Of a stretch of 64,000 nt of DNA, positions 3,303 to 61,343 are shown one piece after another. The position numbers were made by a program, and so were the translations under genes. A model generated the notes under the pieces. It did not search any database and was not told the origin of the DNA. It saw only the letters and a program-made list of their open reading frames with translations. This stretch comes from a bacterium (GTDB lineage Bacteria; Patescibacteriota; Andersenbacteria; UBA10190; CAIZMI01): positions 15,532 through 79,531 of the forward strand of contig JAUSJG010000027.1 in assembly GCA_030647555.1 (NCBI GenBank). Reading direction: 5' to 3'. Numbering within the stretch: position 1 is the first letter of the stretch; every line of letters starts with the position of its first letter.

Positions 3303-3620
3303 TGATTTATGAACTAGAACAAATGCGGCGTCGTTCCTCCTCATCATTCATAAATCATTATTCATCATTCCATCACGCGTAATCGCTCACAGGTTAAGGA
3401 AATAGCCATAGCGATCGCTTCGGCGTTGTCAATCCGTGTTTGCGCTAACCAACACCGATCACGGAACGGAGCAACCTTGCTCCGTTCCGTGATCGGACGC
3501 GATGGTTATTCCTTAACCTGTGAGCGCGTACCATCACGCTGTTTGACAGCGTGATTCGTGTGTTTTATTATGCAGTGTTCCTGTGTTTCGTGTTCCTTTT
3601 ATCATGAAAGCGAGTAGTTT

Positions 3621-5303: not shown

Positions 5304-5317
5304 AATAGTTATTAATT

Positions 5318-5450
5318 TTCAATTATCAATTCCCAATTTTCAAACAATTATCAATTATTTAATTGTCAAAAGTTGCGCGTTTTGGAAAATTGAAATTTGA
5401 AAATTAATTGATAATTGGTCATTGAAAATTGATAATTTTAAATTTTAAAA
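5318..5450. promoter_or_regulatory. AT-rich upstream element of htpX; shares ~30-nt blocks (ttcaattatcaatt..., aattggtcattgaaaattga.aatttt) with the region upstream of the dsbA-like gene at 37456-37600
   Basis: Direct sequence comparison of the two intergenic regions. Both lie immediately 5' of minus-strand envelope-quality-control genes. Confidence 0.45.
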
Positions 5451-5461
5451 TCCTGTGGATT

Positions 5462-6013
5462 TTAAAATTTAACTTGTGGTACCTCTTTTTCCGCCACGTC
5501 GTCTAATTCAAAGAAAGCACGCTGTTTGAAATTGAAAGTGGAGGCGATAAAATTGCCTGGAAATACTTGCATTGCGGAGTTCATATCGCGTACATTGCCA
5601 TTGTAGAAACGACGGGAGGCTTGGATTTTGTTTTCCGTGTCGGAAAGTTCGCGCTGTAGCTCAAGAAAATTCGTATTGGCTTTCAGGTCCGGGTAGTTTT
5701 CCGCAACGGCAAAAAGCGATTTTAGGGTACCGGTTAGGGCGTTTTCCGCTTTTGCTTGGTCTTCCTGGCTTCCACTTTGCATAGCCTTTGTTCTGGCTTC
5801 AGTAACGGCCGTGAGAACACCGCTTTCGTGCGCCACGTAGCCCTTGACGGTTTCAATCAGATTGGGAATAAGATCGTGGCGACGTTTCAGTTGAACGTCA
5901 ATATCCGACCAGGCTTCGTCGGTGTTGTTTTTAAGACGGATAAAACCGTTATAGGTTATTACAACCCAAAGAACGATAGCGACGACGATTACCAGGAGGA
6001 TTAGCAACAACAT
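5462..6013 (-). CDS. lemA: LemA-family membrane protein
   Basis: 183 aa. N-terminal TM helix, then IRLKNNTDEAWSDIDVQLKRRHDLIPNLIETVKGYVAHE, typical of LemA. Confidence 0.8.
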   Translation of the reverse strand: MLLLILLVIVVAIVLWVVITYNGFIRLKNNTDEAWSDIDVQLKRRHDLIPNLIETVKGYVAHESGVLTAVTEARTKAMQSGSQEDQAKAENALTGTLKSLFAVAENYPDLKANTNFLELQRELSDTENKIQASRRFYNGNVRDMNSAMQVFPGNFIASTFNFKQRAFFELDDVAEKEVPQVKF

Positions 6014-6228
6014 ATGTTTGTATAAGGATAATGTCTATAATGTATACCGTTTTTGCAAAGGAGCAAGGAGTTGCTAATTTCTAATTTGCAATTTCTAATT
6101 TTTTCGGCATTGGGGACTGACGTAAATAACCTGTTCATATTTTGTTTAAGTACGCTTAAGAATAAGATTACTATGATTGAACAACGTAAAGTTGCGTGAC
6201 CACGTGGTTTTACGCGATGGTCGTCTAA

Positions 6229-12436: not shown

Positions 12437-12610
12437 GGACTGCCAGGGTCGGATATCGGGTCGGACTGCTGTAGCGGTCCGACCCGCATTGGTCGGCGAC
12501 ACGTTGCCGCCAATCAAGGTCGGACCGCTCGGCAGTCCGACCTTACGCAGACGGGTCCGACCCTGAACCCAACGTGGTTCAGGGGTCCGACCTTAATGCG
12601 TCGTCTAATT
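12437..12610. repeat. REP-like cluster of at least four hairpins with GGTCGGAC/GTCCGACC arms
   Basis: ggtcggac-tgctgtagcg-gtccgacc; ggtcggac-cgctcggca-gtccgacc; gggtccgaccctgaacc-caacg-tggttcaggggtccgacc. Same family at 1-73 and 55076-55178. Confidence 0.6.
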
Positions 12611-12742
12611 CAGTCCCCTAAATGACGATTTTAGAAATTAGATATTAGTAATTGGAAATTTTTAAAACGATATGATTTTGTCATATCTGCTATTTAGCGT
12701 TATACTATCTTTATCAAAAAACAAACTAACATTTCGTAACAC

Positions 12743-13960
12743 ATGTCCCTATTTTCCAGAAAAGAATCTTATATCGGTTTAGATATTGGTACGTCTTCAA
12801 TAAAGATTGTTGAATTGAAGCGAGAGGGGAAGGATCAAATAAGATTAGTTACCTATGCGTCCGCGAAGAGCGCGGAGTCTTTGGCGAGTGATCAAAACAA
12901 TTCAGCCGTCGCGCATGTTGCGACAATCGCGCACGAGATATTACGGCGCGCGGGGGTGACTTCTTCGGAAGTGGTAGCCGCGCTTCCCAGTTTGTCTGTT
13001 TTTTCTGCTGTACTTTCTCTCCCTGATATGAGTGAACGTGATTTGGAAAAGGCGGTTGTTTTGGCGGCCAAAAATTATGTACCATCGCCATTAAAGGATG
13101 TTGTTTTGGGTTGGACGGTGATGAAGGAGGGTATTTCGTCAAAACCGGCATTGCCTGTGGATAAATCCAATAATCAGATGCAGTCGGTTGTAGGTGCCGT
13201 GGGAAAATTTGTTGATTTGAAAAAAAATGAAAATTCGGGCCAAGAGAAGCAAATTGTTCCGGTTGTTCCCGAAGATAGCGCCGAATTGAAAGTGCGTCGC
13301 CCTCTTGCGAAGAAAAACTCGGAAATATTTTTGACGGCTGCTCCCAAGGAATTGGTGCAACGCTATTCGGCGGTGATTGATCGATTGAATTTGAGCTTGG
13401 TTGCGTTGGAAGTCGAATCTTTTCCACTTTCACGTTCTCTTTTGGGGAACGCGAAGGAACCGGCGTTATTGGTGGATATTGGCGATTTGGCGACAAATTT
13501 TTCGATTGTGGATAACGGTTATTTGCGCATCAACCAGAGTGTCGATATTGGCGGAGCCGTATTAACCAAGGCTGTTGTCTCAAAATTTGGTGTTTCGTTG
13601 GAAGTGGCGGAAGCGCGCAAGTTTTCCTTTGGTTTAACTTCGGAAAAAGATAATGAAAGTACGGCAATGGCTTTAAAACCGGTAGTAAAAGATATTATTG
13701 ATCGAAGTATTAATCTAAAACGTATTTTTGAAAGAAAAAGCAATAAGGTTGTTGGTCGCGTGGTATTGATTGGCGGGGGGGCGAACCTAAAAGGTCTTGC
13801 GCAATTTTGGCAAGAAACATCGGGGATGTTTACCGAGGTGGGAAATCCATGGAAAGGCGTGCGGGTTCCGCTCACTTTAACTAATAAGTTAATTGCAAAC
13901 GGGCCTTCTTTCGCGGTGGCGGTTGGTTTGGCATTGCGCGAATTGGAACTTGGGGACTGA
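12743..13960 (+). CDS. pilM: Type IV pilus assembly protein PilM (actin-like ATPase fold)
   Basis: 405 aa. N-terminal YIGLDIGTSSIKIVEL actin-fold phosphate-1 motif. C-terminal VVLIGGGANLKGL. Sits at the head of the pilN/O/B cluster. Confidence 0.85.
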   Translation: MSLFSRKESYIGLDIGTSSIKIVELKREGKDQIRLVTYASAKSAESLASDQNNSAVAHVATIAHEILRRAGVTSSEVVAALPSLSVFSAVLSLPDMSERDLEKAVVLAAKNYVPSPLKDVVLGWTVMKEGISSKPALPVDKSNNQMQSVVGAVGKFVDLKKNENSGQEKQIVPVVPEDSAELKVRRPLAKKNSEIFLTAAPKELVQRYSAVIDRLNLSLVALEVESFPLSRSLLGNAKEPALLVDIGDLATNFSIVDNGYLRINQSVDIGGAVLTKAVVSKFGVSLEVAEARKFSFGLTSEKDNESTAMALKPVVKDIIDRSINLKRIFERKSNKVVGRVVLIGGGANLKGLAQFWQETSGMFTEVGNPWKGVRVPLTLTNKLIANGPSFAVAVGLALRELELGD

Positions 13961-14129
13961 CGTAAATAAACTATCCATCTTATGTCCACTACATCTCTGA
14001 CTACAATTACTACTCAATCACAAAATCTCTCACCGTACTTACAGTACGCCTCAAGATTTTGTTCAATCGTAGTAACCGTATTCAGAGCGTATTGAACAGA
14101 ATATGGACAGGTTATTTACGTCAGTCCCC
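13952..14129. repeat. 178-bp element bounded by 27-bp terminal inverted repeats (ggggactgacgtaaataaactatccat ... atggacaggttatttacgtcagtcccc); left TIR overlaps the pilM stop codon; a third TIR copy at 6102-6128
   Basis: Inverted repeats read directly. Reverse complement of the right arm is ggggactgacgtaaataacctgtccat. Near-identical 27-mer at 6102-6128. Confidence 0.55.
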
Positions 14130-14192
14130 AAAGCGAGTAAAATAGAATAAGTTATTCACAGGAGAGATATACACACTAAACAAAACACTACA

Positions 14193-20414: not shown

Positions 20415-20507
20415 GGGTAGCTTTTAGGTTAATTTTGAACTTAGAAGCAAGATGGGCCTTGAAGAATAACTGGTTTATTTACGCCCAAAATTACCAATGT
20501 CCAATTA

Positions 20508-20541
20508 CCAATTTCCAATGAAATTTCAAATTCCAAAAACG
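20508..20541. promoter_or_regulatory. CCAATTTCCAA...CCAATGAAAT motif upstream of the pilin gene (also at 48612-48637 and 59351-59394)
   Basis: Three copies, each in the 5' region of a plus-strand gene. Confidence 0.35.
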
Positions 20542-20645
20542 TCGTCTTTGCGCCTGCCGGCCGTAGCTTTAGCGAAGGCTGGAGCCAATCTCCTGAACTT
20601 TCGTATTGAAAACATTACTATTTTATCGAGAGGAGGTGATCGCGT

Positions 20646-21060: not shown

Positions 21061-21145
21061 ACAAATGGAAAAAAACAACGCGGAAAATCCCGCGTTGTTT
21101 TGTATTGTAGTTTTCCCCGACTTCGTGCCTACTCTCTGTTTAGTT
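21061..21145. repeat. 85-bp module containing a bidirectional rho-independent terminator (copy 1, terminates pilin gene)
   Basis: aaaaaaacaacgcggaaaatcccgcgttgtttt hairpin with flanking A-run and T-run. Identical 85-mer at 21432-21516. Confidence 0.65.
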
Positions 21146-21431: not shown

Positions 21432-21516
21432 ACAAATGGAAAAAAACAACGCGGAAAATCCCGCGTTGTTTTGTATTGTAGTTTTCCCCGACTTCGTGCC
21501 TACTCTCTGTTTAGTT
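21432..21516. repeat. Second identical copy of the 85-bp terminator module, abutting the stop codon of the minus-strand GT-C gene
   Basis: Exact 85/85 identity with 21061-21145. Confidence 0.65.
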
Positions 21517-28541: not shown

Positions 28542-28547
28542 TTACCT

Positions 28548-28601
28548 GCACCACATTCCAAGTGGAGCAAGCTTGCTCCACTTGGAATGTGGTGCAGGCT
28601 T
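28548..28601. terminator. 54-bp perfect palindrome downstream of ligA (cctgcaccacattccaagtggagcaagc|gcttgctccacttggaatgtggtgcagg)
   Basis: Read directly. No T-run, so function as terminator is uncertain. Confidence 0.4.
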
Positions 28602-32875: not shown

Positions 32876-32879
32876 CGAT

Positions 32880-32915
32880 ACCCTCCCTTATTCAAGGGAG
32901 GGCGAGGGTGGGTTT
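32880..32915. repeat. Hairpin-family repeat ccctcccttattcaagggagggcgagggtggg (partial copy of the CCTCCCTTT..AAAGGGAGG family)
   Basis: Read directly. Related copies at 44255, 48726, 53100 and 61237. Confidence 0.5.
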
Positions 32916-33111
32916 TGTGTGTGTATATTTTATTTTTGGTAAACGGTATAGGTATTTAGGCTTGTTCATCATAGCTTCGTCTTCGTTTGTATCGATATAT
33001 CGATACAAGGTTTTGGAAATTTTGAATTTCATTAGAAATTAGATATTAGTAATTAGTCATTTTGGGCGTCGATAAAACAGTATTAGCAGAGTTAAACAAG
33101 ATGTTTATATT

Positions 33112-34819: not shown

Positions 34820-34893
34820 CGCGGGGAAGAGCAGCCCGGTCGCTCGCATGGCTCATAACCATGAGGTCGCAGGTTCGAATCCTGCCCCCGCTA
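34820..34893 (+). tRNA. tRNA(CAU), initiator-like (C1/U72 mismatch, A11:U24)
   Basis: Cloverleaf folded by hand: acceptor cgcgggg/ccccgct, D-stem gagc/gctc, anticodon stem catgg/ccatg with loop ctCATaa, T-arm gcagg-ttcgaat-cctgc, discriminator A. No encoded CCA. Confidence 0.7.
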
Positions 34894-34935
34894 CTATTAC
34901 TAAAAAGACCCCTGTGGGGTCTTTTTAGTAATAGA
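34894..34935. terminator. Perfect hairpin after the tRNA (ctattactaaaaagacccc-tgt-ggggtctttttagtaatag)
   Basis: 19-bp stem read directly. Similar aaaatacccctgtggggtatttt hairpin at 35044-35066. Confidence 0.45.
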
Positions 34936-34940
34936 ATGTG

Positions 34941-35375
34941 TGCAGGATTCGAACGGTTCATATTTTCGTCGCACGAAAACATGAACCGGTGGCCAGAATT
35001 ATGCAATATCAATTGCATAATTCGAGGCCAAATCCTGCCCACAAAATACCCCTGTGGGGTATTTTTATTGTTATGATCGAGTGCAGGATTTGAACGGTAT
35101 CGTTGTTTCGTAAAACAACGATACCGGTGGCCAGAATTATGCAATATCAATTGCATAATTCGAGGCCAAATCCTGCCCCCTGCGTGGCTCGTGTTTTATT
35201 TATAAAATTTCGCAAAGCGAAATGACAATAATGACGAGCGATATCTTCGAACCAATACTATTGGTTCGAAGATATCGCTCGGATTTGAACGCCGGAGCAT
35301 ATTTTGCGAAGCAAAATGCGAGGCGGTGGCCAGAAACTTTCGTGTCAACGAAAGTTTCGAGGCCAAATCCTGCCC
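34941..35375. repeat. Three tandem ~95-100-nt structured elements (34941-35040, 35083-35178, 35281-35375). Conserved scaffold: gcaggatTYgaac-[hairpin1]-ggtggccaga-[hairpin2]-tcgaggccaaatcctgccc. Candidate structured ncRNAs or tRNA-end-derived miniature elements.
   Basis: Scaffold termini pair (gcaggatt/aatcctgc). tggcc/ggcca encloses hairpin 2. Hairpin 1 differs completely in sequence among the three units yet keeps a 13-14-bp stem. Hairpin 2 is aattatgcaat-atca-attgcataatt in units 1-2 but aaactttcg-tgtcaa-cgaaagttt in unit 3 (compensatory changes). The 3' end aatcctgccc equals the 3' T-arm/acceptor of the adjacent tRNA. Confidence 0.6.
35262..35306. repeat. Perfect inverted repeat gagcgatatcttcgaacc-aatactatt-ggttcgaagatatcgctc between structured units 2 and 3
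   Basis: 18-bp stem read directly. Confidence 0.45.
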
Positions 35376-35518
35376 AGCGCGTAAATCAGAAATCGGGAGT
35401 GGAAATCGGAGATGACGTCTTGTCCATTTACAAATGCAAAAAATTTAGTAGTATTACTCTAGTTTGGGAAGTCGGATGGATCCGACCACCGACTATCTGA
35501 TTTCCGATTTCCGCGTTT

Positions 35519-35591
35519 GGCTGGATAGCTCAGCGGTTAGAGCAATGGCATCATAAGCCATGGGTCGCAGGTTCGAATCCTGCTCCAGCTA
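35519..35591 (+). tRNA. tRNA(CAU), elongator-type (Met or Ile2/lysidine)
   Basis: Acceptor ggctgga/tccagct (G1-U72). D-stem gctc/gagc. Anticodon stem atggc/gccat with loop atCATaa. T-arm gcagg-ttcgaat-cctgc identical to the first tRNA. Discriminator A. Confidence 0.75.
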
Positions 35592-35617
35592 CAAATTATT
35601 CGTAGGGTATTTGTACA

Positions 35618-36583
35618 TTGTTCGCAAAACGTACGGATACGGTATATAATAGTAGCATGAGAGCAAAAGTTGTGGAAAAGTCGCGGGCAATTCAATTGCG
35701 TAAAAACGGTTTAAGTGTGAAACAGATTGCTCAAAAATTAAGCGTCAGCAAGGGTAGTGTCAGTCCTTGGGTGAAGCTGGTTGTTGTTCCGAAAGAAAAG
35801 AGAAAAAAGATCCGCGAAAGAATGTTAATGGGCGGAGAGAAGGGGAGAAAGAAAATTTTGCGAGGTTGGGATGAATATCGAATATTGCATCCAAAACCGC
35901 CACCATATGTTAAACCAGTCCGTTTAATTGACACTTTTTTTGACAAGTGGTCGCCCGAAATGGCGTATGTGCTGGGCTATTTTGCAGCGGACGGCTGTAT
36001 GTTTCGAAACAAGCGTGGGTCTTATTATATCGAATTTACCTCCACAGACATTGAGTTGATTGCATGTGTAAAAAGTATTTTGGAATCAACAAACAAACTT
36101 GAACGATACAAGCTTAAAAACCCAAAATATAAAATCAGGTATAATATTCAGCTTGGGAGTAAAAGTGCTTTCTTGTCGCTTAATAAACTTGGTTTAACAC
36201 CAAATAAGAGTTTAATAATCAAGTTTCCAGCTGTGCCTGATGAGTATTTGGGGCATTTTTTGCGTGGTAACCTTGATGGCGACGGCTGTGTTACTTTCAC
36301 AAATTATTTTCGAAAAGACAGGGGAAAAAGATATTTGAGTTTAATGATCCGTTTCACCAGTGGAAGTAGAGTGTTTTTAGTCGGGATGAAAAATAGGATT
36401 GAACAAAAAATACCGAATATCGGTGGAAGTTTGATATTATACACTCCAAGGCACCATGTTTTGGCGTATTGCACGTCAAGTGCTAGACAACTGTATAAGA
36501 TAATGTATCCTAATAAATTAGTGCCCTGTCTAAAGCGTAAACGTGACATTTTTCTTAGGGCATTTGAGATTTTGGACCCGTAG
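35618..36583 (+). CDS. Free-standing double-motif LAGLIDADG homing endonuclease with N-terminal helix-turn-helix domain
   Basis: 321 aa. Motif 1 MAYVLGYFAADGCMF and motif 2 LGHFLRGNLDGDGCV (LAGLIDADG consensus). N-terminal LSVKQIAQKLSVSKGSVSPW HTH-like. Last two codons plus stop overlap the 5' acceptor of tRNA-Asp. Confidence 0.85.
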   Translation: MFAKRTDTVYNSSMRAKVVEKSRAIQLRKNGLSVKQIAQKLSVSKGSVSPWVKLVVVPKEKRKKIRERMLMGGEKGRKKILRGWDEYRILHPKPPPYVKPVRLIDTFFDKWSPEMAYVLGYFAADGCMFRNKRGSYYIEFTSTDIELIACVKSILESTNKLERYKLKNPKYKIRYNIQLGSKSAFLSLNKLGLTPNKSLIIKFPAVPDEYLGHFLRGNLDGDGCVTFTNYFRKDRGKRYLSLMIRFTSGSRVFLVGMKNRIEQKIPNIGGSLILYTPRHHVLAYCTSSARQLYKIMYPNKLVPCLKRKRDIFLRAFEILDP

Positions 36584-37384: not shown

Positions 37385-37455
37385 AATGATTGATTGAAGT
37401 GTTAGATCTATATGATGAGCATATAGAAAGGATGGAGGAGAAGCAAGCGCAAATT

Positions 37456-37600
37456 TTCAATTATCAATTTTGCAATTTTCAAATAATTTTCAATGATTTA
37501 ATTATTTGATAGCGTCACCATCTTTGAGAATTAGAAGAATTGATAATTATTTGAAAATTGGTCATTGAAAATTGAAAATTTTGTATAATTATTCATATAA
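37456..37600. promoter_or_regulatory. AT-rich divergent promoter region sharing conserved blocks with the htpX upstream region (5318-5450)
   Basis: ttcaattatcaatt...ttttcaa and aaaattggtcattgaaaattgaaaatttt present in both. Confidence 0.45.
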
Positions 37601-42060: not shown

Positions 42061-44202
<2,142 letters not shown>

Positions 44203-44212
44203 AGGTTTTTGT

Positions 44213-44405
44213 GGATCACACGCGATAATGGGTCATTTGAGGTAGGCGTAGCGATTCCTCCCTTTTTCAAAGGTTGCACACGCATCGGCGGTGTTACCCT
44301 GATGGGTTAAAGGCGGGGAGGGATTGTGAAGATAAGCACAGTCTAAGCTTCTTATCTTAATCCACCCTCGCCCTCCTTTAAATAAAGGAGGGAAACGACG
44401 GCGTC
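44213..44405. repeat. Composite ~190-bp structured element E1 (left hairpin cctcccttt...aaagg interrupted by a 37-bp segment, middle arms ggcggggagggatt/aatccaccctcgccc, right hairpin ccctcctttaaataaaggaggg)
   Basis: Near-identical modules to E2 at 53056-53246. The 37-bp segment ttgcacacgcatcggcggtgttaccctgatgggttaa (44274-44310) is present in E2 as its reverse complement at 53181-53217. Confidence 0.6.
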
Positions 44406-44517
44406 TTCTTTTTTAATTTGACGTAATTCTGCGTGTACTGCTATCCCGCTATTGCGTGTGATCCGTTTTTGTGTTGTTTATCGTAAAAACTTTGTTTTGT
44501 TGTGTTATCATATACGG

Positions 44518-46263
44518 ATGAATGACCAACAAGATAAAAATCTAATAAGTGAACCTATTAAACCGCCAGTTGTGAATAATCCTATTCCTCAAACAAAGGT
44601 AGTTTCTGACATTATTCCGGAAGTTGATAAAAGTCTTTTGATAAAACCGAATGACCAGCTTTTGAATATAGATCTTCAGTCCAAAGAAAAGATTGCGGAA
44701 GTGAAGCAAAAAAACGACTTTAAAGTGCTAACAGCTGTGCCATTGGTTGTCGATAATAATGCCAGCTCGATACTACTGGGGATTGAAGAGAAAAAACCGT
44801 TTAATCGGTTGTTTATCATTACTCCTTTTTTTCTATTGGTACTTGCCGGTTTTGCCGTGGCTTTCTATAGCGGAGTTCTGCCGTTGCCATTTTGGGGTTT
44901 GACGCATGAACAAGTCATAGAAAAAATGTTTGACGCTATCCCCAATATTCGTTCCGGTCGTTTTGGGATGGAAATCAATTTTAAATCCTCGGCAAGACAA
45001 GCGGGAATGCAAGGATATGATTTATCTCCAATGTTGGGTGGGGCGGGAAACGGCGCGTCGGTTGATGGTGCCGGCGAAAGAGATCGTGTACGGCTTAACG
45101 CAACTAGTGATATTGCGACCGCCTTGGAAGCTTATAAAAAACAGAATGGTAAATATCCGCAATTTCTTAATGATATAAAAATCGTCACTCCTGATATTAT
45201 CCTTGATCCGGCTTCAAAAAACCAATTTGGTTATCGACAAGAAAAGGGCGGAATGGATTTCACACTGCATATACAGATGGAGACCGATCAAGGAATCAAT
45301 AATTTTCGAAATGCCGTGTTGGTAATTCCTTCCGCATCTCTGCAAACTGTCGAGGATAAGTTGGCGGTGGTGCATGCTGATACGCCAAAACTTAAGAAAC
45401 AAAACGTATCGTCTGTTTCAGCAAATACAACACCGGCATATGACCCAACGGTTGTTCTTCAAAATTTACCGTCCGAAATTGACGCAAATCTTCGTTTTTC
45501 CGGTTTAGCTAAACAAGGTATCGCTGGTAGTGACGCGCTTTTGAATATTGACGGTAGTTTAAAATTGAGTGGAATGAGTTTTTCCGCCGGTTTGGGATTG
45601 ATAAAAAAAGGCGATATTGTTTATGGGAAAGTTAAAGAGGTTCCAACGTTGGGTTTCTTTGATCTTGCTGTGCTTAGAGATAAATGGGTCAAGTTGGAGA
45701 AGGCCGATTTAAGCAAATTAGGGTTTAAAGACGCGGATCAGCAGTTACAACAGGAAAATATGGCAAAGTATCTTGTGTTGGCGAAAACATACTTGCAAAT
45801 TCTAAAAGAAGAAAAAGTCTTTTCAGTTGTTAAAGAGTTGCCGAAGACGAAAGATAAAAATGACACTTATTATCATTACGCGGTGAATATTAATAGTGAT
45901 AAAATAGCGGTTATTTACGAAAGATTAAACGCCGAAATAAAGAAGCAATTTGGCGGTAAAGGTGACTATATCAGCGCTGATTTGATCGCTTATCTTCGTG
46001 GTTCGGAATACGCCAAAATCAATAAAATTTCTCAACAAAACACGCAAATAGAGATCTGGATCGATACAAAGAATTTTTGGCCGCATAAATTCACTTCAAA
46101 CTCGGTCTTTGTACCACCGGATAATATTCAAAAATTGAAAGACAAACAGTACCTTGCGCAGGTGACCTTTGATCTATTTGACGTAAATAAGCCAATTGTT
46201 GTCGACGCGCCCACAGAATTTATTTCTCTCGATGATGCGCAGAAACTGGTGACGGGGAAATAG
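44518..46263 (+). CDS. Membrane-anchored hypothetical protein with a pilin-fold-like segment (ATALEAYKKQNGKYP)
   Basis: 582 aa from the ATG at 44518. One TM helix at ~aa 100-125. Motif resembling the conserved alpha-beta loop region of type IV pilins and pseudopilins. Confidence 0.45.
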   Translation: MNDQQDKNLISEPIKPPVVNNPIPQTKVVSDIIPEVDKSLLIKPNDQLLNIDLQSKEKIAEVKQKNDFKVLTAVPLVVDNNASSILLGIEEKKPFNRLFIITPFFLLVLAGFAVAFYSGVLPLPFWGLTHEQVIEKMFDAIPNIRSGRFGMEINFKSSARQAGMQGYDLSPMLGGAGNGASVDGAGERDRVRLNATSDIATALEAYKKQNGKYPQFLNDIKIVTPDIILDPASKNQFGYRQEKGGMDFTLHIQMETDQGINNFRNAVLVIPSASLQTVEDKLAVVHADTPKLKKQNVSSVSANTTPAYDPTVVLQNLPSEIDANLRFSGLAKQGIAGSDALLNIDGSLKLSGMSFSAGLGLIKKGDIVYGKVKEVPTLGFFDLAVLRDKWVKLEKADLSKLGFKDADQQLQQENMAKYLVLAKTYLQILKEEKVFSVVKELPKTKDKNDTYYHYAVNINSDKIAVIYERLNAEIKKQFGGKGDYISADLIAYLRGSEYAKINKISQQNTQIEIWIDTKNFWPHKFTSNSVFVPPDNIQKLKDKQYLAQVTFDLFDVNKPIVVDAPTEFISLDDAQKLVTGK

Positions 46264-46467
46264 GGTGGTAGATCAGTTGTTGAAGTCTTGATTAGCCCTC
46301 TTCGTTATTGATTTTATTTTTTGATCCAGATTTGTATATAGTATTTGGTATGTTGTATATGGGGAAGATGGGCTTGCTACGCTCCATATACTATATACCA
46401 TATACTATATACAAAAGGTCATATCATTTTGGGGTGGGTTACAAGAAAAGGTTCTAAATGCGTGTTG

Positions 46468-46496
46468 ACACCATAAGATATGCCTGTTATTATCCT
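46468..46496 (+). promoter_or_regulatory. Sigma70-like promoter (TTGACA-17 bp-TATTAT) for the secE-nusG-rplK-rplA cluster
   Basis: ttgacaccataagatatgcctgttattat read directly, ~55 bp upstream of the secE ATG. Confidence 0.5.
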
Positions 46497-46552
46497 CATG
46501 AGGTCTCACCGACGCGCAATGCTAATTTTTACCCCGGTGAGCCGAGCACACT

Positions 46553-46768
46553 ATGAATTACATATCCAATATCACCAAACTCCCCCAAGGAGTTGTGTCC
46601 TATATTCGTGATTCACGAACGGAATTAAAGAACGTCCAATGGCCCACTAGGGCCGAGACGATTCGTTATACGATCCTGATTTTGGCTGTTTCGCTGGCTG
46701 TGGCTATTGCCACTGGTGCAGTTGATGCCGGTCTCACCTATGTTATCCAAAAATTCGTCCTTAAATAA
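46553..46768 (+). CDS. secE: Preprotein translocase subunit SecE
   Basis: 71 aa. Single C-terminal TM helix preceded by the NVQWPTRAET-like motif. Confidence 0.85.
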   Translation: MNYISNITKLPQGVVSYIRDSRTELKNVQWPTRAETIRYTILILAVSLAVAIATGAVDAGLTYVIQKFVLK

Positions 46769-46774
46769 CAAACG

Positions 46775-47320
46775 ATGCCTAAACAGATATCTAGCGGAGA
46801 AAAATCTTGGTTCGTCCTTCACACCTATTCAGGTTACGAAGATAATGTTGCGCGCAATTTAAAGCAACGTATTGAGTCGATGGGAATGGAAGATAAGATT
46901 TTCAATGTTTTGGTGCCACGCGAAAAGAAAATCAAGATCAAGAACGGCAAACGTCGCACGGTTGAGGAACGTCTTTTCCCCGGTTATGTGATGGTCGAAA
47001 TGATTGTGACGGACGATTCTTGGTATGTTGTGCGCAATACGCCAAATGTCACCGGTTTCGTTGGTTCCGGTACCACGCCGACTCCCGTTTCTGAAGACGA
47101 AATGAAGCATTTAATGGAGCGAATGGGCCAAGACGAACCGAAGTACACGATGGACATCAAGATTGGCGAAACCGTCAAAATTATTGATGGGCACTTCAAA
47201 GAATTCGATGGTAAAATCTCCGAAGTTAACGAGCAAAAGGGCAAAATCAAGGTTTTGATCAATATGTTTGGTCGCGAAACGCCACTAGAATTGGACTTTT
47301 TGCAGGTTAAGAAAGTATGA
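46775..47320 (+). CDS. nusG: Transcription termination/antitermination factor NusG
   Basis: 181 aa. NGN domain (WFVLHTYSGYE) and C-terminal KOW (GETVKIIDGHFKEFDGKI). Confidence 0.95.
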   Translation: MPKQISSGEKSWFVLHTYSGYEDNVARNLKQRIESMGMEDKIFNVLVPREKKIKIKNGKRRTVEERLFPGYVMVEMIVTDDSWYVVRNTPNVTGFVGSGTTPTPVSEDEMKHLMERMGQDEPKYTMDIKIGETVKIIDGHFKEFDGKISEVNEQKGKIKVLINMFGRETPLELDFLQVKKV

Positions 47321-47459
47321 GATAGTAGTCTTTGCGAGGCACATCAGTGCCGACCCTGCGAGGGTTACCGATAAAGCAATCTCCTTTCTAGTAAAGCCAC
47401 TCGCAATGACGGTCGACATTGGACAAAATTAAGCAAATAATATATCTTTTAAACTCATC

Positions 47460-48576: not shown

Positions 48577-48579
48577 CGG

Positions 48580-48975
48580 TATTTGAAACTTGGGCGACAG
48601 AATGCCCAATACCCAATTTCCAATAACCAATGAAATGTTCGAATGTTCAATTCGGGCATTTTTGTAAAGGAGGGCAGTCTTTGCGAGCCATCGCTCGAAG
48701 CGAGGCGAAGCAATCTCTCGCGTTTCCTCCCTTTATTCAAAGGGAGGAGGGGAGGGATTTTAGGCGAGTGTAAGGCAAAAACAACCAACACATATATTAT
48801 AGTAAGCGCTCACAGGTTGAGGAAATAGCCGTAGTGGCCACATCGAAGGTGGTGCTTCAGCACTTCCTCGGGAGTGGATGCAGGTTAGCGACGAACGAAC
48901 CCACACCACCTTCGAGGAAGCCGTGAGCGGCCACCTCGAAGGTGGTCACTTATCAAAATATTTTGTAACATAAAC
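48580..48975. repeat. Repeat-rich structured intergenic region combining members of several families (CCAATTTCCAA motif, cctccctttattcaaagggagg hairpin, cgctcacaggttRaggaaatagccRtag motif, ccaccttcgagg/cctcgaaggtgg palindromes)
   Basis: Motifs read directly. The cgctcacaggtt...aggaaatagcc 29-mer also occurs at 3396-3424. Confidence 0.5.
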
Positions 48976-48977
48976 TC

Positions 48978-49700
48978 ATGCATAAAGGTCTACTCCTCGT
49001 CAACGAAGGTCCGGATGGTTCCGGCAAAGAAACGCAGACACGACTACTTTGCGACTATTTGGAAGGAGAAGGGTATAATCTCGTAAAATTTTCGTTTCCT
49101 ACATACAAGCAAGATCCGGTGGCGGACTTGATTCGGTTTATGTTGCACGAGGCCAAGGATGATTGGAACACACGCGATTGGCGTTCTAAAGCGGTTTTAT
49201 ATGCATCGAACAGGTTACGCTTCGCGCCAGAGATGCGCGCAGCATTAGAAGTTCCGGGGAACGTTGTTATATGTGATCGGTTTGTTTCCAGTAACCAAGG
49301 CCATATGGGCGCGTTGGCGGAAGATCCGACCGAGCGCTTACAACGCTACGCCTGGATTGATCATTTGGAATTTGAAATGATGGGCCTGCCAAGACCGGAC
49401 GTTGTTTTATTACACACGATGCCGAGTGAAATGCGGGCTCAGCTTCTAATGAAACGCGAAAACGGAAATCCGGACGCGCACGAAGGAAATTCCGCATATC
49501 TAGACCTTGTCGAACAAAGTTACTACGAACTGATGGATTTTTACCCGGAAGTTTGGCGACACATTCCGGCGGACATGGACGGAAGGTTGCAGACGCCGGA
49601 TGAAGTGCACGGACGTGTGAAGCAAGCACTTCTGGGACATCAAAATTGGATTGAATTTGTAGAACAACGAGAGCCGGCTGGCATTCAATTTGAAATTTGA
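48978..49700 (+). CDS. tmk: Thymidylate kinase-family protein (dTMP kinase)
   Basis: 240 aa. P-loop EGPDGSGKETQ. DRF motif (CDRFVSSNQGHMGA). Lid region. Confidence 0.75.
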   Translation: MHKGLLLVNEGPDGSGKETQTRLLCDYLEGEGYNLVKFSFPTYKQDPVADLIRFMLHEAKDDWNTRDWRSKAVLYASNRLRFAPEMRAALEVPGNVVICDRFVSSNQGHMGALAEDPTERLQRYAWIDHLEFEMMGLPRPDVVLLHTMPSEMRAQLLMKRENGNPDAHEGNSAYLDLVEQSYYELMDFYPEVWRHIPADMDGRLQTPDEVHGRVKQALLGHQNWIEFVEQREPAGIQFEI

Positions 49701-49868
49701 AATTTTTAATTTGAAATCAATTTTTAATATTTAAATTTGAAATAACGACGCGCGGTTTTCAAATTAAGATATTTAACTATTTCAAATTGATTAAAAATTT
49801 CAAATTTCAAATTAAAAATTGGCAGTCAACTAGGTGACAAACCACACGTTTTCTTTTAATCTGAGCTT

Positions 49869-52384: not shown

Positions 52385-52404
52385 AATGAAATTTTGGTTT
52401 ATCT

Positions 52405-52435
52405 GTGACCGACCCTGGCGTACAGGGACGGTCCC
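52405..52435. repeat. 31-nt element GTGACCGACCCTGGCGTACAGGGACGGTCCC in the miaA/52471 divergent region; inverted near-identical copy at 59414-59444
   Basis: 30/31 identity after reverse-complementing. Both copies sit in divergent promoter regions. Confidence 0.55.
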
Positions 52436-52470
52436 AGATATAAAGTAATTGATGTGATAGAATATGCAAT

Positions 52471-53055: not shown

Positions 53056-53246
53056 GGATCACACGCAATAGTGGGTCATTTGTAGAAACCGCAACGTTTC
53101 CTCCCTTTTTCAAAGGGAGGCGGGGAGGGATTGTGATTATAAGGACATCGTAGCTTCTTAATTTAATCCACCCTCGCCCTTTAGCCCATCAGGGCAACAC
53201 CGCCGAAGCGTGTGCAACTTTGAATAAAGGAGGGTAACGGGGCGTC
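53056..53246. repeat. Composite structured element E2 (paralog of 44213-44405) with the 37-bp segment inverted and located in the right-hand hairpin
   Basis: See E1. Shared blocks ggatcacacgcRataRtgggtcatttg, ttcctccctttttcaaagg, ggcggggagggattgtga, agcttctta.tttaatccaccctcgccc, aataaaggaggg.aacgRcgRcgtc. Confidence 0.6.
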
Positions 53247-55075: not shown

Positions 55076-55178
55076 ACGGACGGGTAAGGTCGGACTGCCG
55101 GGCGGTCCGACCTTAACTGGTCGCGTCGCCGTCCAATGAGGGTCGGACCCCTCGAGGAGTCCGACCCTTTCTAGACAA
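55076..55178. repeat. REP-like hairpin cluster (GGTCGGAC arms)
   Basis: taaggtcggac-tgccgggcg-gtccgacctta and gagggtcggaccc-ctcgaggag-tccgaccct. Confidence 0.55.
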
Positions 55179-55555: not shown

Positions 55556-55714
55556 TACCGCCGCTCGTCGTCTGACGCGCGGTTTTTTTTAATTCATTTT
55601 TCTTGAAAGAAAAATGAATTAATCCCTCGAAGCTCGTCTCGCGAGACGAGCGAAGTGGGATATCTCCAACTTTAAGGGTCACCCCTAAAGTAAGCGCTAC
55701 TTTAGGGGTGACCC

Positions 55715-58700
55715 TTAAAGTTCTTCCTGTGCGGGTTCAAACTTGTGTTGAATTACCGGTTTCGCTTCTTCGACTTTGATGCAATTTGGTCCGAGAATGT
55801 TGCCAAATAGATTTTGCAGGAATGGCGTGTAAGTAATTAAATAGGATGTTTTGACGAGATCTTTTTGATTTTCCTTCTGGATTTCCAAGAAGACTGCGGT
55901 GCGGCCCTTGCCGACCTTTTCCAGAATTGCTTTCAAATCCATGAAGGTGCGTTTCGTCGCATTTACCGGAACACTGATTGTGATGCTAATCGGAGGTTTT
56001 TCGTCAAAAATAGCTTTGTTTTTTAGGGCCTTTGGTGGATTGGCCGGGTCGTATTCCGACGCGGAGTCGGCTAAAATTTTCGGTACGCCGTCCTTGTCGC
56101 TGACGCGTCCTTCAATAATTAAGACTTTATCTTCCAGCCACAGGTTTTGGGTGGTTTCCAGCAATTTTGCGAACACTAAAACCTCCAACGAACCGGAGCG
56201 GTCTTCAACAGTGGCGAAGGCCATGGCTTTTTGTGTGCGAGTGATAATTTTTTTGATGGTGGTAATTATACCGCCGATTTTCACTTTTTCGTTCGCATTA
56301 TGAATGGTGATGTCGGCAATTGGGGTTGTGGCTTCCGCGAGCGCTGGGGCGATATCCATCAATGGATGACCGGAAATAAATAATCCCAACAATTCTTTTT
56401 CCCAACTAAGGCGTTGCTTTTGCGTGGCCGGTTCAACGGCTTTTAGGGTTACTTTTGGTCGCGCCACTTCGGCGGGCATCATACCAAAAAGATTGGCCTG
56501 ATTAGTTAGCAATTGTTTGCCAATATCGCGGTTGAAATTCAAAAGTGTGTCGGTGTTTTCCAAAATTTGGTTGCGTTCGGCAAGTGTGTCAAAAGCGCCG
56601 GCCTTAGCTAGACTTTCGACAGACTTTTTATTCAGATCACGCGAATGCACGCGGGAGAAGAAATCTATGAGATCTTTGGACGAGCCGGCCTTCTCGCGTT
56701 CAGCGATAATTGCTTCTACAATATGTTCGCCGACATTTTTTACCGTGTGCAGTCCAAAACGGATTTCGTCTTTCGGAATTGAATCATTGGCTTTCAAGAC
56801 TGTAAAACCTTTATGTGAAAAATTTACATCCGGCGGTAACACGGGAATTTCCATCCGTTTACATTCGTTGATGATGATGGCAATTTTTTCGATATCGCCG
56901 GATTCGGCGGAAAGGACGGCGCACATATACTCGGCAGGGAAGTTGGCCTTCATGTAGGCAGTTTGGTAGGCAACACGTCCGTAACACGCGGCGTGTGCTT
57001 TGTTGAAACCGTAACCTTGGAAGGGTTCGAACAAATTCCAAATCGCTTCGGCTTGGTCTTTGGTTAAGTTGCTGTTTTTTTGACACCCATCAACGAAAAT
57101 AATATGTTGCTTTGCCATTTCTGCCGGAATCTTTTTTCCGATGGCTTTTCTAAACTTATCGACTGTTTCCCAGTTGTAGCCGGCTAGTTCCAGAGCGGTA
57201 AACATTAGGTCATCTTGATAAACTAAAATACCATAAGATTTGGCCAAGAAATTTTGTGCCTTCGGGTGGAAATATTTGATTGGACTGCGTCCAAGTTTAC
57301 GTGCGATATATTCCGGAATGTTATTCATTGGTCCCGGGCGATAGAGGGCCACCATGGCGTTGATGTCATGTATCGTAGTTGGCTTCAGATCCATTAAATG
57401 TTTTGTCATACCTTCGCCGTTTAGTTGAAACAATCCTTCCGTTTCGCCATTCGCCAACATTTCAAAAGTTTTTTTGTCATCGAACGGAATCCGTTCGATG
57501 TCTATTTTAATATTGTGGTGAAGTTTCACTAGGCGCACCGCGTCTTCCAGTATGGCCAAATTACGGATCCCTAAAAAGTCGAGTTTGGTTAGGCCGACGC
57601 CATCTTCGCCAACGGTGTACATGTCGTACTGGGTAATGCGTCGGTTGCCGTCTTTCGGATCAAGCTGAATTGGGACGTAATTAACAAGTGGTTGGGGAGC
57701 AATAACTACGCCGGCCGCGTGCACCGAAACATGGCGCATCGTGCCCTCCAGTTTGCGAGAAATATCCAGAATGTGTTTTATTTCCGGGTCAGTGTCATAT
57801 ATTTTTTTCAATTCCGGTTCAATTTCCATGGCGTGGTCGATAGTCATCGGAAAGCCTTGCGAGCCCATTGGGATCAGTTTGGCCACGCGGTCACCCAGTT
57901 CATATGGTTTATTTAACGCTCTGGCCACGTCACGCACCGCACCACGCGCCATCATCGTACCGAATGTGCCGATCTGGGCCACTTTATCATCGCCGTATTT
58001 TAGTTTGGCATAGTCAATTACTTCGCCTCGGCGATTATCCGCAAAATCCATATCGATATCGGGCGCGGACGGGCGGAAAGGATTTAAGAACCGTTCAAAA
58101 GGAAGTTGGAATTCGATTGGATTAACATTTGTGATTCCGGAAAGATAAGCAACCAGTGATCCGGCGGCGGATCCACGCACGGTGGTGTAAATATCCGATT
58201 TACGGGCGAAGCGTAATAAGTCGGCAACCACTAGAAAATAGGGGGCGTAGTTTTTTTGTTTGATAACATCCAGTTCGTATTTGCGTCTTTCTTCGGAAAC
58301 CTTATCTTCCGTTAGGCCATGGAAGTTCATCCCTTTTTGCGTAAGTTCGTCGAGCATTTGATCGGCGGTTTTTCCTTCTTCTAGCGCAAAGTCGGGGAAG
58401 ATAAATTTGCCTAGAGTCAGTTCGATGTTGCAACGATCCGCAATAACTTTTGTATTAGTGACAGCCTCGGGAATATCGGAAAACCATTCCATCGCTTCCT
58501 CGGTGGAAATAAAATGGTATTGGCCGGTGCCGGCAAAAATGCCGGTGTCGCCCACGTCGGTGTTGGTGGAAATGGCAACGAGTGTTTTGTGCGCTTCCGC
58601 ATCGTCGGGGCGCAAGTAATGAGAGTCTTGGGTGGCGACTAGCGGGATATTCAGTTCGCGCGAAAGTTCGATCAACATAAAGCGCCACTTTTCAAAATTG

Positions 58701-59336: not shown

Positions 59337-59413
59337 ATAATGCTCTAAATCCCAATTTCCAAAACGACACTTCGGTAATTAGTCCAATGAAATGTCGAAA
59401 TGACAAAAGATCA

Positions 59414-59444
59414 GGGACCGTCCCTGCACGCCAGGGTCGGTCAC
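59414..59444. repeat. Inverted copy of the 31-nt GTGACCGACCC... element
   Basis: See 52405-52435. Confidence 0.55.
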
Positions 59445-59601
59445 TGATAGTAGTGTTTTTTTGTTGGTTTCTCATGAATTTTCATCTTACCAAGCCACCC
59501 AAAAATGCACTATTGACAATTTGGGTGGTTTGGAGTATAATTATGGGTTGTTCTTGGAAAACTTGTGCGTTCTGTGGTCGCTTTTTGTGAAGGAGAATGT
59601 C

Positions 59602-61229: not shown

Positions 61230-61236
61230 TAGCATT

Positions 61237-61343
61237 CCTCCCTTTATTTAAAGGGAGGCGGGGAGGGATTAAGTCAATAATCCTTTGATTGCCCAATAGA
61301 CATAACCCATCCCCGCCTTCCCTTGAATAAGGGAAGGAATGCG
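61237..61343. repeat. Compact (insert-free) copy of the composite element: cctccctttatttaaagggagg + ggcggggagggatt...aacccatccccgcc + ccttcccttgaataagggaagg
   Basis: Same three-module architecture as E1/E2. Confidence 0.5.

Follow-up and report, generated by a model that had tools for sequence, protein, structure and literature searches.

Two non-coding elements in a 64-kb stretch of DNA from a Patescibacteria metagenome-assembled genome (MAG), here called the window (all coordinates refer to it), are probably copies of one nested family of selfish or mobile palindromic DNA built on three levels. Element E1 (44213-44464, 252 bp) lies between the stop codon of gyrB and the ATG of the next gene and is covered by no open reading frame (ORF); element E2 spans 53056-53246, near thrS. 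The first level appears to be a hairpin unit resembling repetitive extragenic palindromes (REPs), the second an inverted doublet of an A-type and a B-type unit, and the third a micro-insert of 36/37 nt (the 37-mer) in the 3' arm of a unit, with a 44-nt module, X, preceding doublets of the E type. This view draws on the anatomy of the elements, the fixed site and polarity of the insert, its clean junctions, covariation in the unit stem, and presence or absence of the elements at orthologous sites.

Anatomy of E1 and E2

We compared the window with loci of three origins, designated by L numbers: L005 and L008 from MAG Loc090907-8-6m_bin-405; L010, L011 and L012 from Joint Genome Institute (JGI) metagenomes; and syntenic loci of relatives (L013, L018-L023 and L026). 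Identity of ThrS to that of the window is 93% in L013, 94% in L026 and 80% in L018, and L019 comes from a relative with a 93% identical ThrS; ThrS homologues place the lineage in Patescibacteria. Reading both regions confirmed every block that the original prediction, an earlier sequence-based note on this DNA, had described as common to E1 and E2, including the G-rich arm GGCGGGGAGGGATT and its imperfect complement, which were found where it had placed them. The parts of E1 and its borders are as follows.

44205-44212, no strand: left 8-bp direct repeat GTTTTTGT, putative target-site duplication of E1, identical to 44465-44472
44213-44256, plus strand: X module of E1, opening with the left terminal inverted repeat (15 nt, 44213-44227, GGATCACACGCGATA), which pairs with 44450-44464 in the fold
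44257-44325, plus strand: A-type unit with insert, CCTCCCTTT-TTC-AAAGG [37-mer] AGG plus tail CGGGGAGGGATT
44274-44310, plus strand: 37-mer insert (T + 36-mer) with two mini-hairpins
44326-44358, plus strand: E-type spacer that forms the long helix's loop, with homologues in E2, L010 and L005
44359-44405, minus strand: intact B-type unit, CCCTCCTTT-ATTT-AAAGGAGGG plus tail CGAGGGTGGATT, with head flank GACGCCGTCGTT
44406-44464, minus strand: right inner segment followed by the X start in inverted form, of which 44450-44464 (minus-strand sequence GGATCACACGCAATA) is the right terminal inverted repeat
44465-44472, no strand: right 8-bp direct repeat GTTTTTGT, read from the sequence

The hairpin and G-arm segments of both strands align as a single unit, about 35 nt long, in which a G-rich tail follows a 9-bp hairpin. 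Its A form reads CCTCCCTTT-loop-AAAGGGAGG-CGGGGAGGGATT and its B form CCCTCCTTT-loop-AAAGGAGGG-CGAGGGTGGATT, with a stem that covaries relative to the A form. Stem pairing held in 98% of cells over 11 distinct units, taken from the window and from related loci, and three of the nine stem pairs showed compensatory double changes, a result that none of 500 shuffles equalled; the hairpin stem is thus kept by compensatory changes. An nhmmer profile of the unit found exactly eight copies in the window, all intergenic, which make up three tail-to-tail inverted pairs (E1, E2 and a copy near 61 kb) and two singlets, and further doublets lie outside the window in L005, L010 and L013. The three-module architecture recognised earlier consists of one A unit and one B unit on opposite strands with a spacer between them, a heterodimer like those known as REPINs (REP doublets forming hairpins) or bacterial interspersed mosaic elements (BIMEs), and its long middle helix is the pairing between the two unit tails. 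With its 33-nt spacer, such a heterodimer is predicted to be able to fold into a long hairpin with two side hairpins.

The outer part of E1 extends beyond this doublet. The 15-nt sequence GGATCACACGCRATA at 44213-44227(+) recurs inverted at 44450-44464(-) (4 matches against 0.23 expected), the two terminal repeats pair with each other in the minimum-free-energy fold, and a perfect GTTTTTGT directly abuts both. E1 was originally bounded at 44213-44405; the start stands, and the end moves to 44464, where the inverted GGATCACACGCRATA stops, with GTTTTTGT on both sides. By its ends, E1 is a complete copy of an element resembling MITEs (miniature inverted-repeat transposable elements): it has terminal inverted repeats of 15 nt and a target duplication of 8 bp, features that point to insertion at the DNA level. 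The left block GGATCACACGCRATARTGGGTCATTTG (27 nt) occurs at 44213 and 53056 only. Three Logan contigs from run SRR13727527 match the window at 100% identity. One of them, L025, covers 44286-47381 and independently confirms E1 from the interior of the 37-mer rightwards; its start within the 37-mer is typical of an assembly that breaks at a repeat, and illustrates how such repeats break short-read assemblies.

E2 and the remaining units of the window are laid out below.

53056-53099, plus strand: X module of E2, on the left only, with no right inverted repeat and no recognisable duplication
53100-53132, plus strand: intact A-type unit of E2, CCTCCCTTT-TTC-AAAGGGAGG plus CGGGGAGGGATT
53133-53164, plus strand: E-type spacer of E2, oriented as in E1
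53165-53246, minus strand: B-type unit with insert and head flank; on the minus strand CCCTCCTTT-ATTC-AAAG [37-mer] AGGG plus CGAGGGTGGATT
53181-53217, minus strand: second 37-mer copy, with 3 differences from the E1 copy, two of which form a compensated change of an A-T to a G-C pair
32879-32914, plus strand: singlet unit found by the unit profile, beginning 2 nt beyond a Mur-ligase gene's stop codon
48724-48759, plus strand: singlet unit found by the unit profile, downstream of rplA
61235-61343, plus strand: tail-to-tail unit pair without insert and with an unrelated spacer, found by the unit profile and read in the sequence

The last three correspond to the partial copies and the compact copy without the segment that had been reported earlier, with refined bounds; the spacer of the 61-kb copy differs from those of both E1 and E2. 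Aligned with each other, the E1 and E2 backbones are colinear and 81% identical; unit types agree on each side, and so does the orientation of the spacer. We rejected the idea that E2 is an inverted E1, because the backbones are colinear and the spacer is not inverted. Judging from its borders, E2 is probably either truncated or the product of a different route of arrival.

We also observed that the 3' arm of the unit (AAAGGAGG/AAAGGGAGG) is a strong Shine-Dalgarno sequence, for example at 44371-44392, at 53100-53120 and at 1137-1165 of L008, where AAAGGGAGG lies 10 nt upstream of the atpB start codon. The 5' arm (CCTCCTTT) mimics the 3' end of 16S rRNA, and the start of the X module, TGGATCAC, resembles the 16S tail, GGATCACCTCCTT.

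Site, polarity and structure of the micro-insert

The 37-mer TTGCACACGCATCGGCGGTGTTACCCTGATGGGTTAA at 44274-44310(+) recurs at 53181-53217(-) with 3 mismatches (0 matches expected, from 100 shuffles), and a 21-nt core is exact in both copies. We searched one genome collection and one metagenome collection with patterns drawn solely from the interior of the 37-mer; as these contained no flank sequence, the host context of the inserts recovered is unbiased. Scanning the genome collection with the 21-nt core gave eight loci, two of them genuine (both in MAG bin-405); the other six were rejected as chance matches inside GC-rich genes of unrelated bacteria. Together with the two window copies, the five from another MAG and from metagenomes (L005, L008, L010, L011 and L012) give a sample of seven inserts.

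When oriented by the host unit, all seven superimpose, reading 5' arm, loop, AAAG(G)N, TGCACACGCNTCGGCGGTGTTRCCCTRATGGGYTAA, AGG(G) and tail, so that the insert has one site and one polarity relative to the unit in every copy. It sits in the A unit of a doublet in E1 and L010, in the B unit of a doublet in E2 and L005, in a singlet in L008 and in a head-to-head pair in L011; the A-type unit of L012 lies at the very end of its contig, so its arrangement is unreadable. The original prediction held that the 37-mer acts like a small insertion directed to AAAGG/CCTTT hairpins, and the five copies found elsewhere, like the two in the window, are always in that context; they also go against confinement to these two places, which the prediction had named among its grounds for refutation. 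It also held that the target is the hairpin loop, which the alignment contradicts: the insert interrupts the 3' arm of the unit stem (AAAGG(G)^AGG). The opposite orientation of the segment in E1 and E2, in different sub-hairpins, was correctly observed, and no real flip lies behind it. The host is a palindromic pair of units, and an insert on the left in E1 and on the right in E2 makes the same segment look oppositely oriented through mirror symmetry. With polarity constant in seven of seven copies and with colinear backbones, the segment does not behave as the invertible module that had been suggested.

The junctions are precise. L010 reads AAAGGG[36-mer]AGG and L008 reads AAGGG[T+36-mer]AGG, and both are pure insertions in which nothing was lost, nothing was duplicated and no microhomology is present. 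The insert always follows AAAG(G)(G) and precedes AGG, and carries no flanking inverted repeats of its own. In B-type units it lies one base earlier in the arm (AAAG[G->T]^AGGG), so that the site tracks the sequence G^AGG and not a fixed position in the stem. Units could also be related in the opposite direction, with empty units arising from carriers by AAAGG-AAAGG slippage; we rejected this route, which predicts AAAGGCGGGG where AAAGGGAGGCGGGG is observed. Since deletion of a segment is very unlikely to leave a perfect 9-bp hairpin, it is more parsimonious to assume insertion into an existing one.

The host stem, though split by the insert, is still able to pair in both its halves (CCT/AGG and CCCTTT/AAAGGG). 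The insert contributes two mini-hairpins, GCAC(A)CGC-NTCG-GCGGTGT, often with a C(UUCG)G loop, and RCCC-TGAT-GGGY, both predicted in most copies with RNA and with DNA parameters. Added to the kept host stem they would form a four-way junction, and in a few copies only is the full junction the minimum-energy structure. The variable columns among the seven inserts are the junction base, one base per loop and one compensated A-T/G-C pair; this pattern gives weak support to kept mini-hairpins, since most stem positions are fixed by the search patterns. That the 37-mer is better conserved than its host was also considered as a sign of recent spread, and was rejected as an ascertainment bias of exact-match patterns.

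Separately, the X module (44213-44239 and 53056-53082) and the 37-mer (44274-44313) share CACACGC followed by (A/G)TGGGT in the same order, spaced by 4 nt in the X module and 18 nt in the 37-mer. The extra bases of the 37-mer are largely complements that turn each shared motif into a hairpin. The shared motifs may reflect common descent or coincidence.

Probable mobility of the elements and rival explanations

Comparison with relatives revealed sites filled in one genome and empty in another. The gap between gyrB and the next gene (hypothetical) measures 315 nt in the window and 32-66 nt in six relatives' loci (L018-L023), and L019 has a single, unoccupied GTTTTTGT at the position corresponding to the E1 site. 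The gap 3' of thrS lacks E2 in L013, L026 and L018, two of which hold other palindromic repeats there. In all, none of the related genomes retrieved holds E1 or E2 in the orthologous gaps. L013 likewise lacks the 61-kb doublet in the orthologous gap, and carries an A/B doublet of its own in the miaA promoter gap, where the window holds a different repeat (52400-52450). Such differences between filled and empty orthologous sites are classical evidence of mobility, and the earlier description of a mosaic, extragenic and mobile-looking family agrees with them and with the strictly intergenic position of the units. Palindromic repeats thus differ even between relatives whose ThrS proteins are 93-94% identical, a sign that selfish DNA in intergenic gaps turns over rapidly. 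The gyrB genes beside this gap also differ: that of L019 (2207-5695) encodes 1162 aa with an intein splicing domain, and that of the window (42070-44202) is a 710-aa ORF with none.

How might such elements have spread? E1 would have been inserted by a trans-acting transposase that makes 8-bp duplications, and doublets would propagate as wholes, as suggested by the A/B asymmetry and the E spacer being conserved between assemblies. The micro-insert would have entered A-type and B-type units independently, each time in a site-specific event, most plausibly with single-stranded hairpin DNA as substrate and through an HUH/Y1-type or otherwise unknown enzyme, as has been suggested for other tiny nested repeats. 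The lack of target duplication, the fixed polarity and the hairpin target are together most reminiscent of single-strand HUH/Y1 transposition, and by this analogy an HUH/Y1-like site-specific step is a possible route of arrival that we would rate at best as evenly balanced. Effects of the elements on mRNA ends or translation would be by-products.

Several observations weigh against mobility of the family or of its insert. E2 has no right inverted repeat and no target duplication recognisable at its borders. Pfam searches detected no transposase or recombinase among the 30 ORFs of the window, and the Pfam lists of the relatives' syntenic loci contain none either; a Y1_Tnp or REP-associated tyrosine transposase (RAYT) domain is likewise missing from the 64-kb window and from those lists. 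At the left junction, five of the seven copies show T or A where G is expected; most insertions are thus not perfectly clean. The two mini-hairpins are unlike each other in stem and loop sequence, whereas the end hairpins of IS200/IS605 elements match. The strong conservation of the 37-mer is in part an artefact of exact-pattern searching, and the whole reading stands on 7 inserts and about 20 units. All five window copies (E1, E2, the 61-kb pair and the two singlets) lie just 3' of a gene and are co-oriented with it, which also fits a role at the RNA level. Finally, none of the seven copies in the searched collections was met outside a unit, and mobility of the insert is therefore inseparable from co-propagation with its host. 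Beyond these collections, scans of viral contigs for the 37-mer, the X end and the unit gave no match, nor did blastn of E1 against plasmid and phage collections.

The confinement of the insert to units is what one would expect if the 37-mer were not independently mobile and marked a longer subfamily of units that spreads with its host, gene conversion or recombination shifting it between A and B contexts. In keeping with this, all four E-type pairs carry exactly one insert, three of them having been found through the insert search itself. Sites 12 nt apart within the insert show all four combinations, so that recurrent mutation must be common and incongruence between insert variant and host unit type is weak evidence. 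Nevertheless, the carriers belong to both the A and the B type and differ on both sides of the insert, with some 5-10 nt shared for a conversion tract; they include singlets, tail-to-tail pairs and a head-to-head pair at non-orthologous sites in several assemblies, and grouping E-type pairs by backbone does not separate them by the side that bears the insert. We regard a co-spreading subfamily as rather unlikely on balance. Independent mobility of the micro-insert is plausible but unproven, and it is a tentative proposal that the 36/37-nt module is itself mobile, which would place it among the smallest mobile modules known: non-coding, of one polarity, targeted to G^AGG in a REP-like stem, and moved by a trans-acting HUH-type or other enzyme.

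A role in RNA was also entertained, the elements then being structured RNA genes or cis-elements (3'-untranslated-region stabilisers, terminators, or translational regulators that sequester the Shine-Dalgarno-like AAAGGAGG) and the 37-mer an optional RNA domain. The elements are indeed very stable (fold z-scores of -6.7, -4.7 and -8.8), their stems covary, C(UUCG)G loops are frequent, and the full E1 folds better on the gene-sense strand (-105 versus -91 kcal/mol); the position of the window copies behind genes and of AAAGGGAGG before atpB in L008 would suit such a role as well. However, doublet cores fold equally well on both strands, which made fold asymmetry uninformative as a test for cores. 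Searching the whole window against Rfam 15 at the gathering threshold returned tRNAs only, and below threshold the best matches over E1 had E-values of at least 1 and were noise; scans for promoter and terminator consensus sequences around E1 and E2 found none. In L010 and L008 the copies run antisense to the genes beside them, and in L013 and L005 they occupy divergent promoter gaps. Absence at orthologous sites of relatives with 80-94% identical ThrS further implies that no conserved gene-specific function is attached to the elements, and the inverted repeats and duplication of E1 speak for DNA-level insertion. An RNA-level role is not needed to explain any observation and seems improbable; the structured small RNA of the original prediction is accordingly disfavoured.

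It is very improbable that E1 and E2 arose through local duplication with rearrangement, or that the 37-mer is an invertible segment driven by a recombinase. Such an origin would account for the window's having just two 37-mers, 8.9 kb apart on opposite strands, and leaves unexplained the five further copies elsewhere in the same host context. Nor does it agree with the colinear, 81% identical backbones and their uninverted spacer, with an insert that has no flanking inverted repeats and a constant polarity relative to the unit, or with the absence of a recombinase gene nearby, by Pfam, among the 30 window ORFs.

Known systems and neighbouring repeats

The probable mobile family shares features with several described classes of small repeats. 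One such class comprises the REPs and, as their inverted doublets, REPINs and BIMEs (Bertels & Rainey 2011, PMC3116915; Di Nocera et al. 2013, PMC3733652). As in those families, a hairpin unit of 20-40 nt with an unpaired tail is numerous, extragenic and mostly 3' of genes, occurs as singlets and as tail-to-tail and head-to-head dimers that fold into one large stem-loop, and forms heterodimers with conserved spacers and dimers nested in other palindromes. Unlike them, the present unit has a sequence unrelated to described families and a Patescibacteria MAG as host, and carries a GTAG or CGTC tag near its head in only about half of the cases (GTAG in 3 and CGTC in about 6 of some 18 units), 4-5 nt off the stem and not adjacent to it. 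Since these tags are inconsistent and the RAYT search covered the 64-kb window, membership in RAYT-associated REP families is not established.

Bacterial MITEs such as Nezha and Chunjie (reviewed in Delihas 2011, PMC3184786) offer a second comparison. Like them, E1 is small (below about 600 bp), carries no coding sequence, ends in 15-nt inverted repeats flanked by an 8-bp direct repeat, folds back strongly, and has filled and empty sites. It differs in that no parent insertion sequence (IS) with the ends of E1 is known, in that E2, L010 and L005 have a single or a degenerate X end, and in that its interior is itself a REPIN-like doublet.

The micro-insert finds a parallel in the small dispersed repeats (SDRs) of Nostoc. 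SDR4-6 are reportedly tiny non-coding modules of 21-27 nt that lie at precise positions within larger repeats, fit the secondary structure of their hosts, lack a transposase gene of their own and move by means not yet understood. A passage in PMC4390886 quotes SDR5 as precisely inserted inside HIP1. Compared by description only, the 37-mer likewise is a micro-insert at a precise, recurrent site in a larger repeat and compatible with the structure of its host; it differs in its length of 36-37 nt, in its target, a REP-like stem, and in occurring in the candidate phyla radiation (CPR) and not in cyanobacteria. IS1397 and ISKpn1 are said to target REP hairpins, and such elements share with the insert a sequence- and structure-specific insertion into extragenic palindromes. 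Palindrome-associated mini-elements derived from IS200/IS605 share with it the lack of target duplication, a polarity fixed by a short target word, and hairpins near both ends. Unlike either group, the insert is 36-37 nt long without coding capacity, has two dissimilar hairpins, and is accompanied by no Y1 transposase in the window.

The family thus combines known kinds of repeat (REPIN/BIME, MITE and nested micro-repeats) as what appears to be a new variant; a literature search found no description of REPs or MITEs in Patescibacteria. A tiny insert of constant polarity in one half of a palindrome is uncommon, though it has precedents. Genomes of Patescibacteria/CPR are usually described as small and streamlined, yet this 64-kb CPR stretch carries several palindromic intergenic repeat families. 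If the 36/37-nt module is indeed mobile, a genome of roughly the 1-Mb class would carry parasitic DNA on three levels, a micro-insert in a REPIN-like doublet in a MITE. The movement of very small repeats has reportedly been an open question since the cyanobacterial SDRs were described, and the nested insert is a tractable case for studying how repeats too short for conventional transposon ends move. The repeats put strong Shine-Dalgarno-like sequences and hairpins at gene ends and may thereby affect expression, and their stable folds could be mistaken for small RNA genes.

The window also holds GC-rich palindromic intergenic repeats of at least three other families, none of them related to the REP-like unit:

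30-69, 52400-52450 and 59399-59449
12510-12546 and 55084-55120
6098-6149, 13950-13992 and 14089-14143

Long perfect or near-perfect palindromes directly follow ligA and dnaE, and a TATAC-rich one follows a 603-aa ORF (28545-28598; 55668-55722; 46331-46415); the last resembles in style the element in the thrS gap of L013. The 400-nt gap between rplA and tmk (48577-48977) combines, as a mosaic, the singlet unit with more hairpins and with a copy of a repeat that recurs at 3379-3422. L013 has a 211-aa ORF in its place, and the thrS flank of L026 is filled by a similar style of repeat. Many intergenic gaps hold AT-rich arrays of AATTTTC/AATTATC-type words in both orientations, partly detected by Tandem Repeats Finder (TRF) (5314-5470, 12627-12686, 20469-20545, 33002-33081, 37450-37583 and 49684-49829). 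Beside the pilin genes, an 85-nt perfect direct repeat occupies 21061-21145 and 21432-21516, 371 nt apart, each copy holding a terminator-like hairpin AAAACAACGCGG-AAAA-CCCGCGTTGTTTT.

One further array differs from these in form. At 34931-35380(-), between the tRNA-Met genes at 34820-34894 and 35519-35592 and adjoining an ORF with LAGLIDADG and helix-turn-helix (HTH) domains (35618-36583), three tandem copies of about 100 nt each form a Y-shaped structure with the closing helix GCAGGAUUU/AAAUCCUGC and the tRNA T-arm-like GTTCGAATCC. Neither an ARAGORN call nor an Rfam family match was obtained for this array. Its two long internal hairpins vary between copies and stay paired (z-scores -9.7, -8.6 and -5.1), and it could be a tRNA-derived repeat or an undescribed non-coding RNA.

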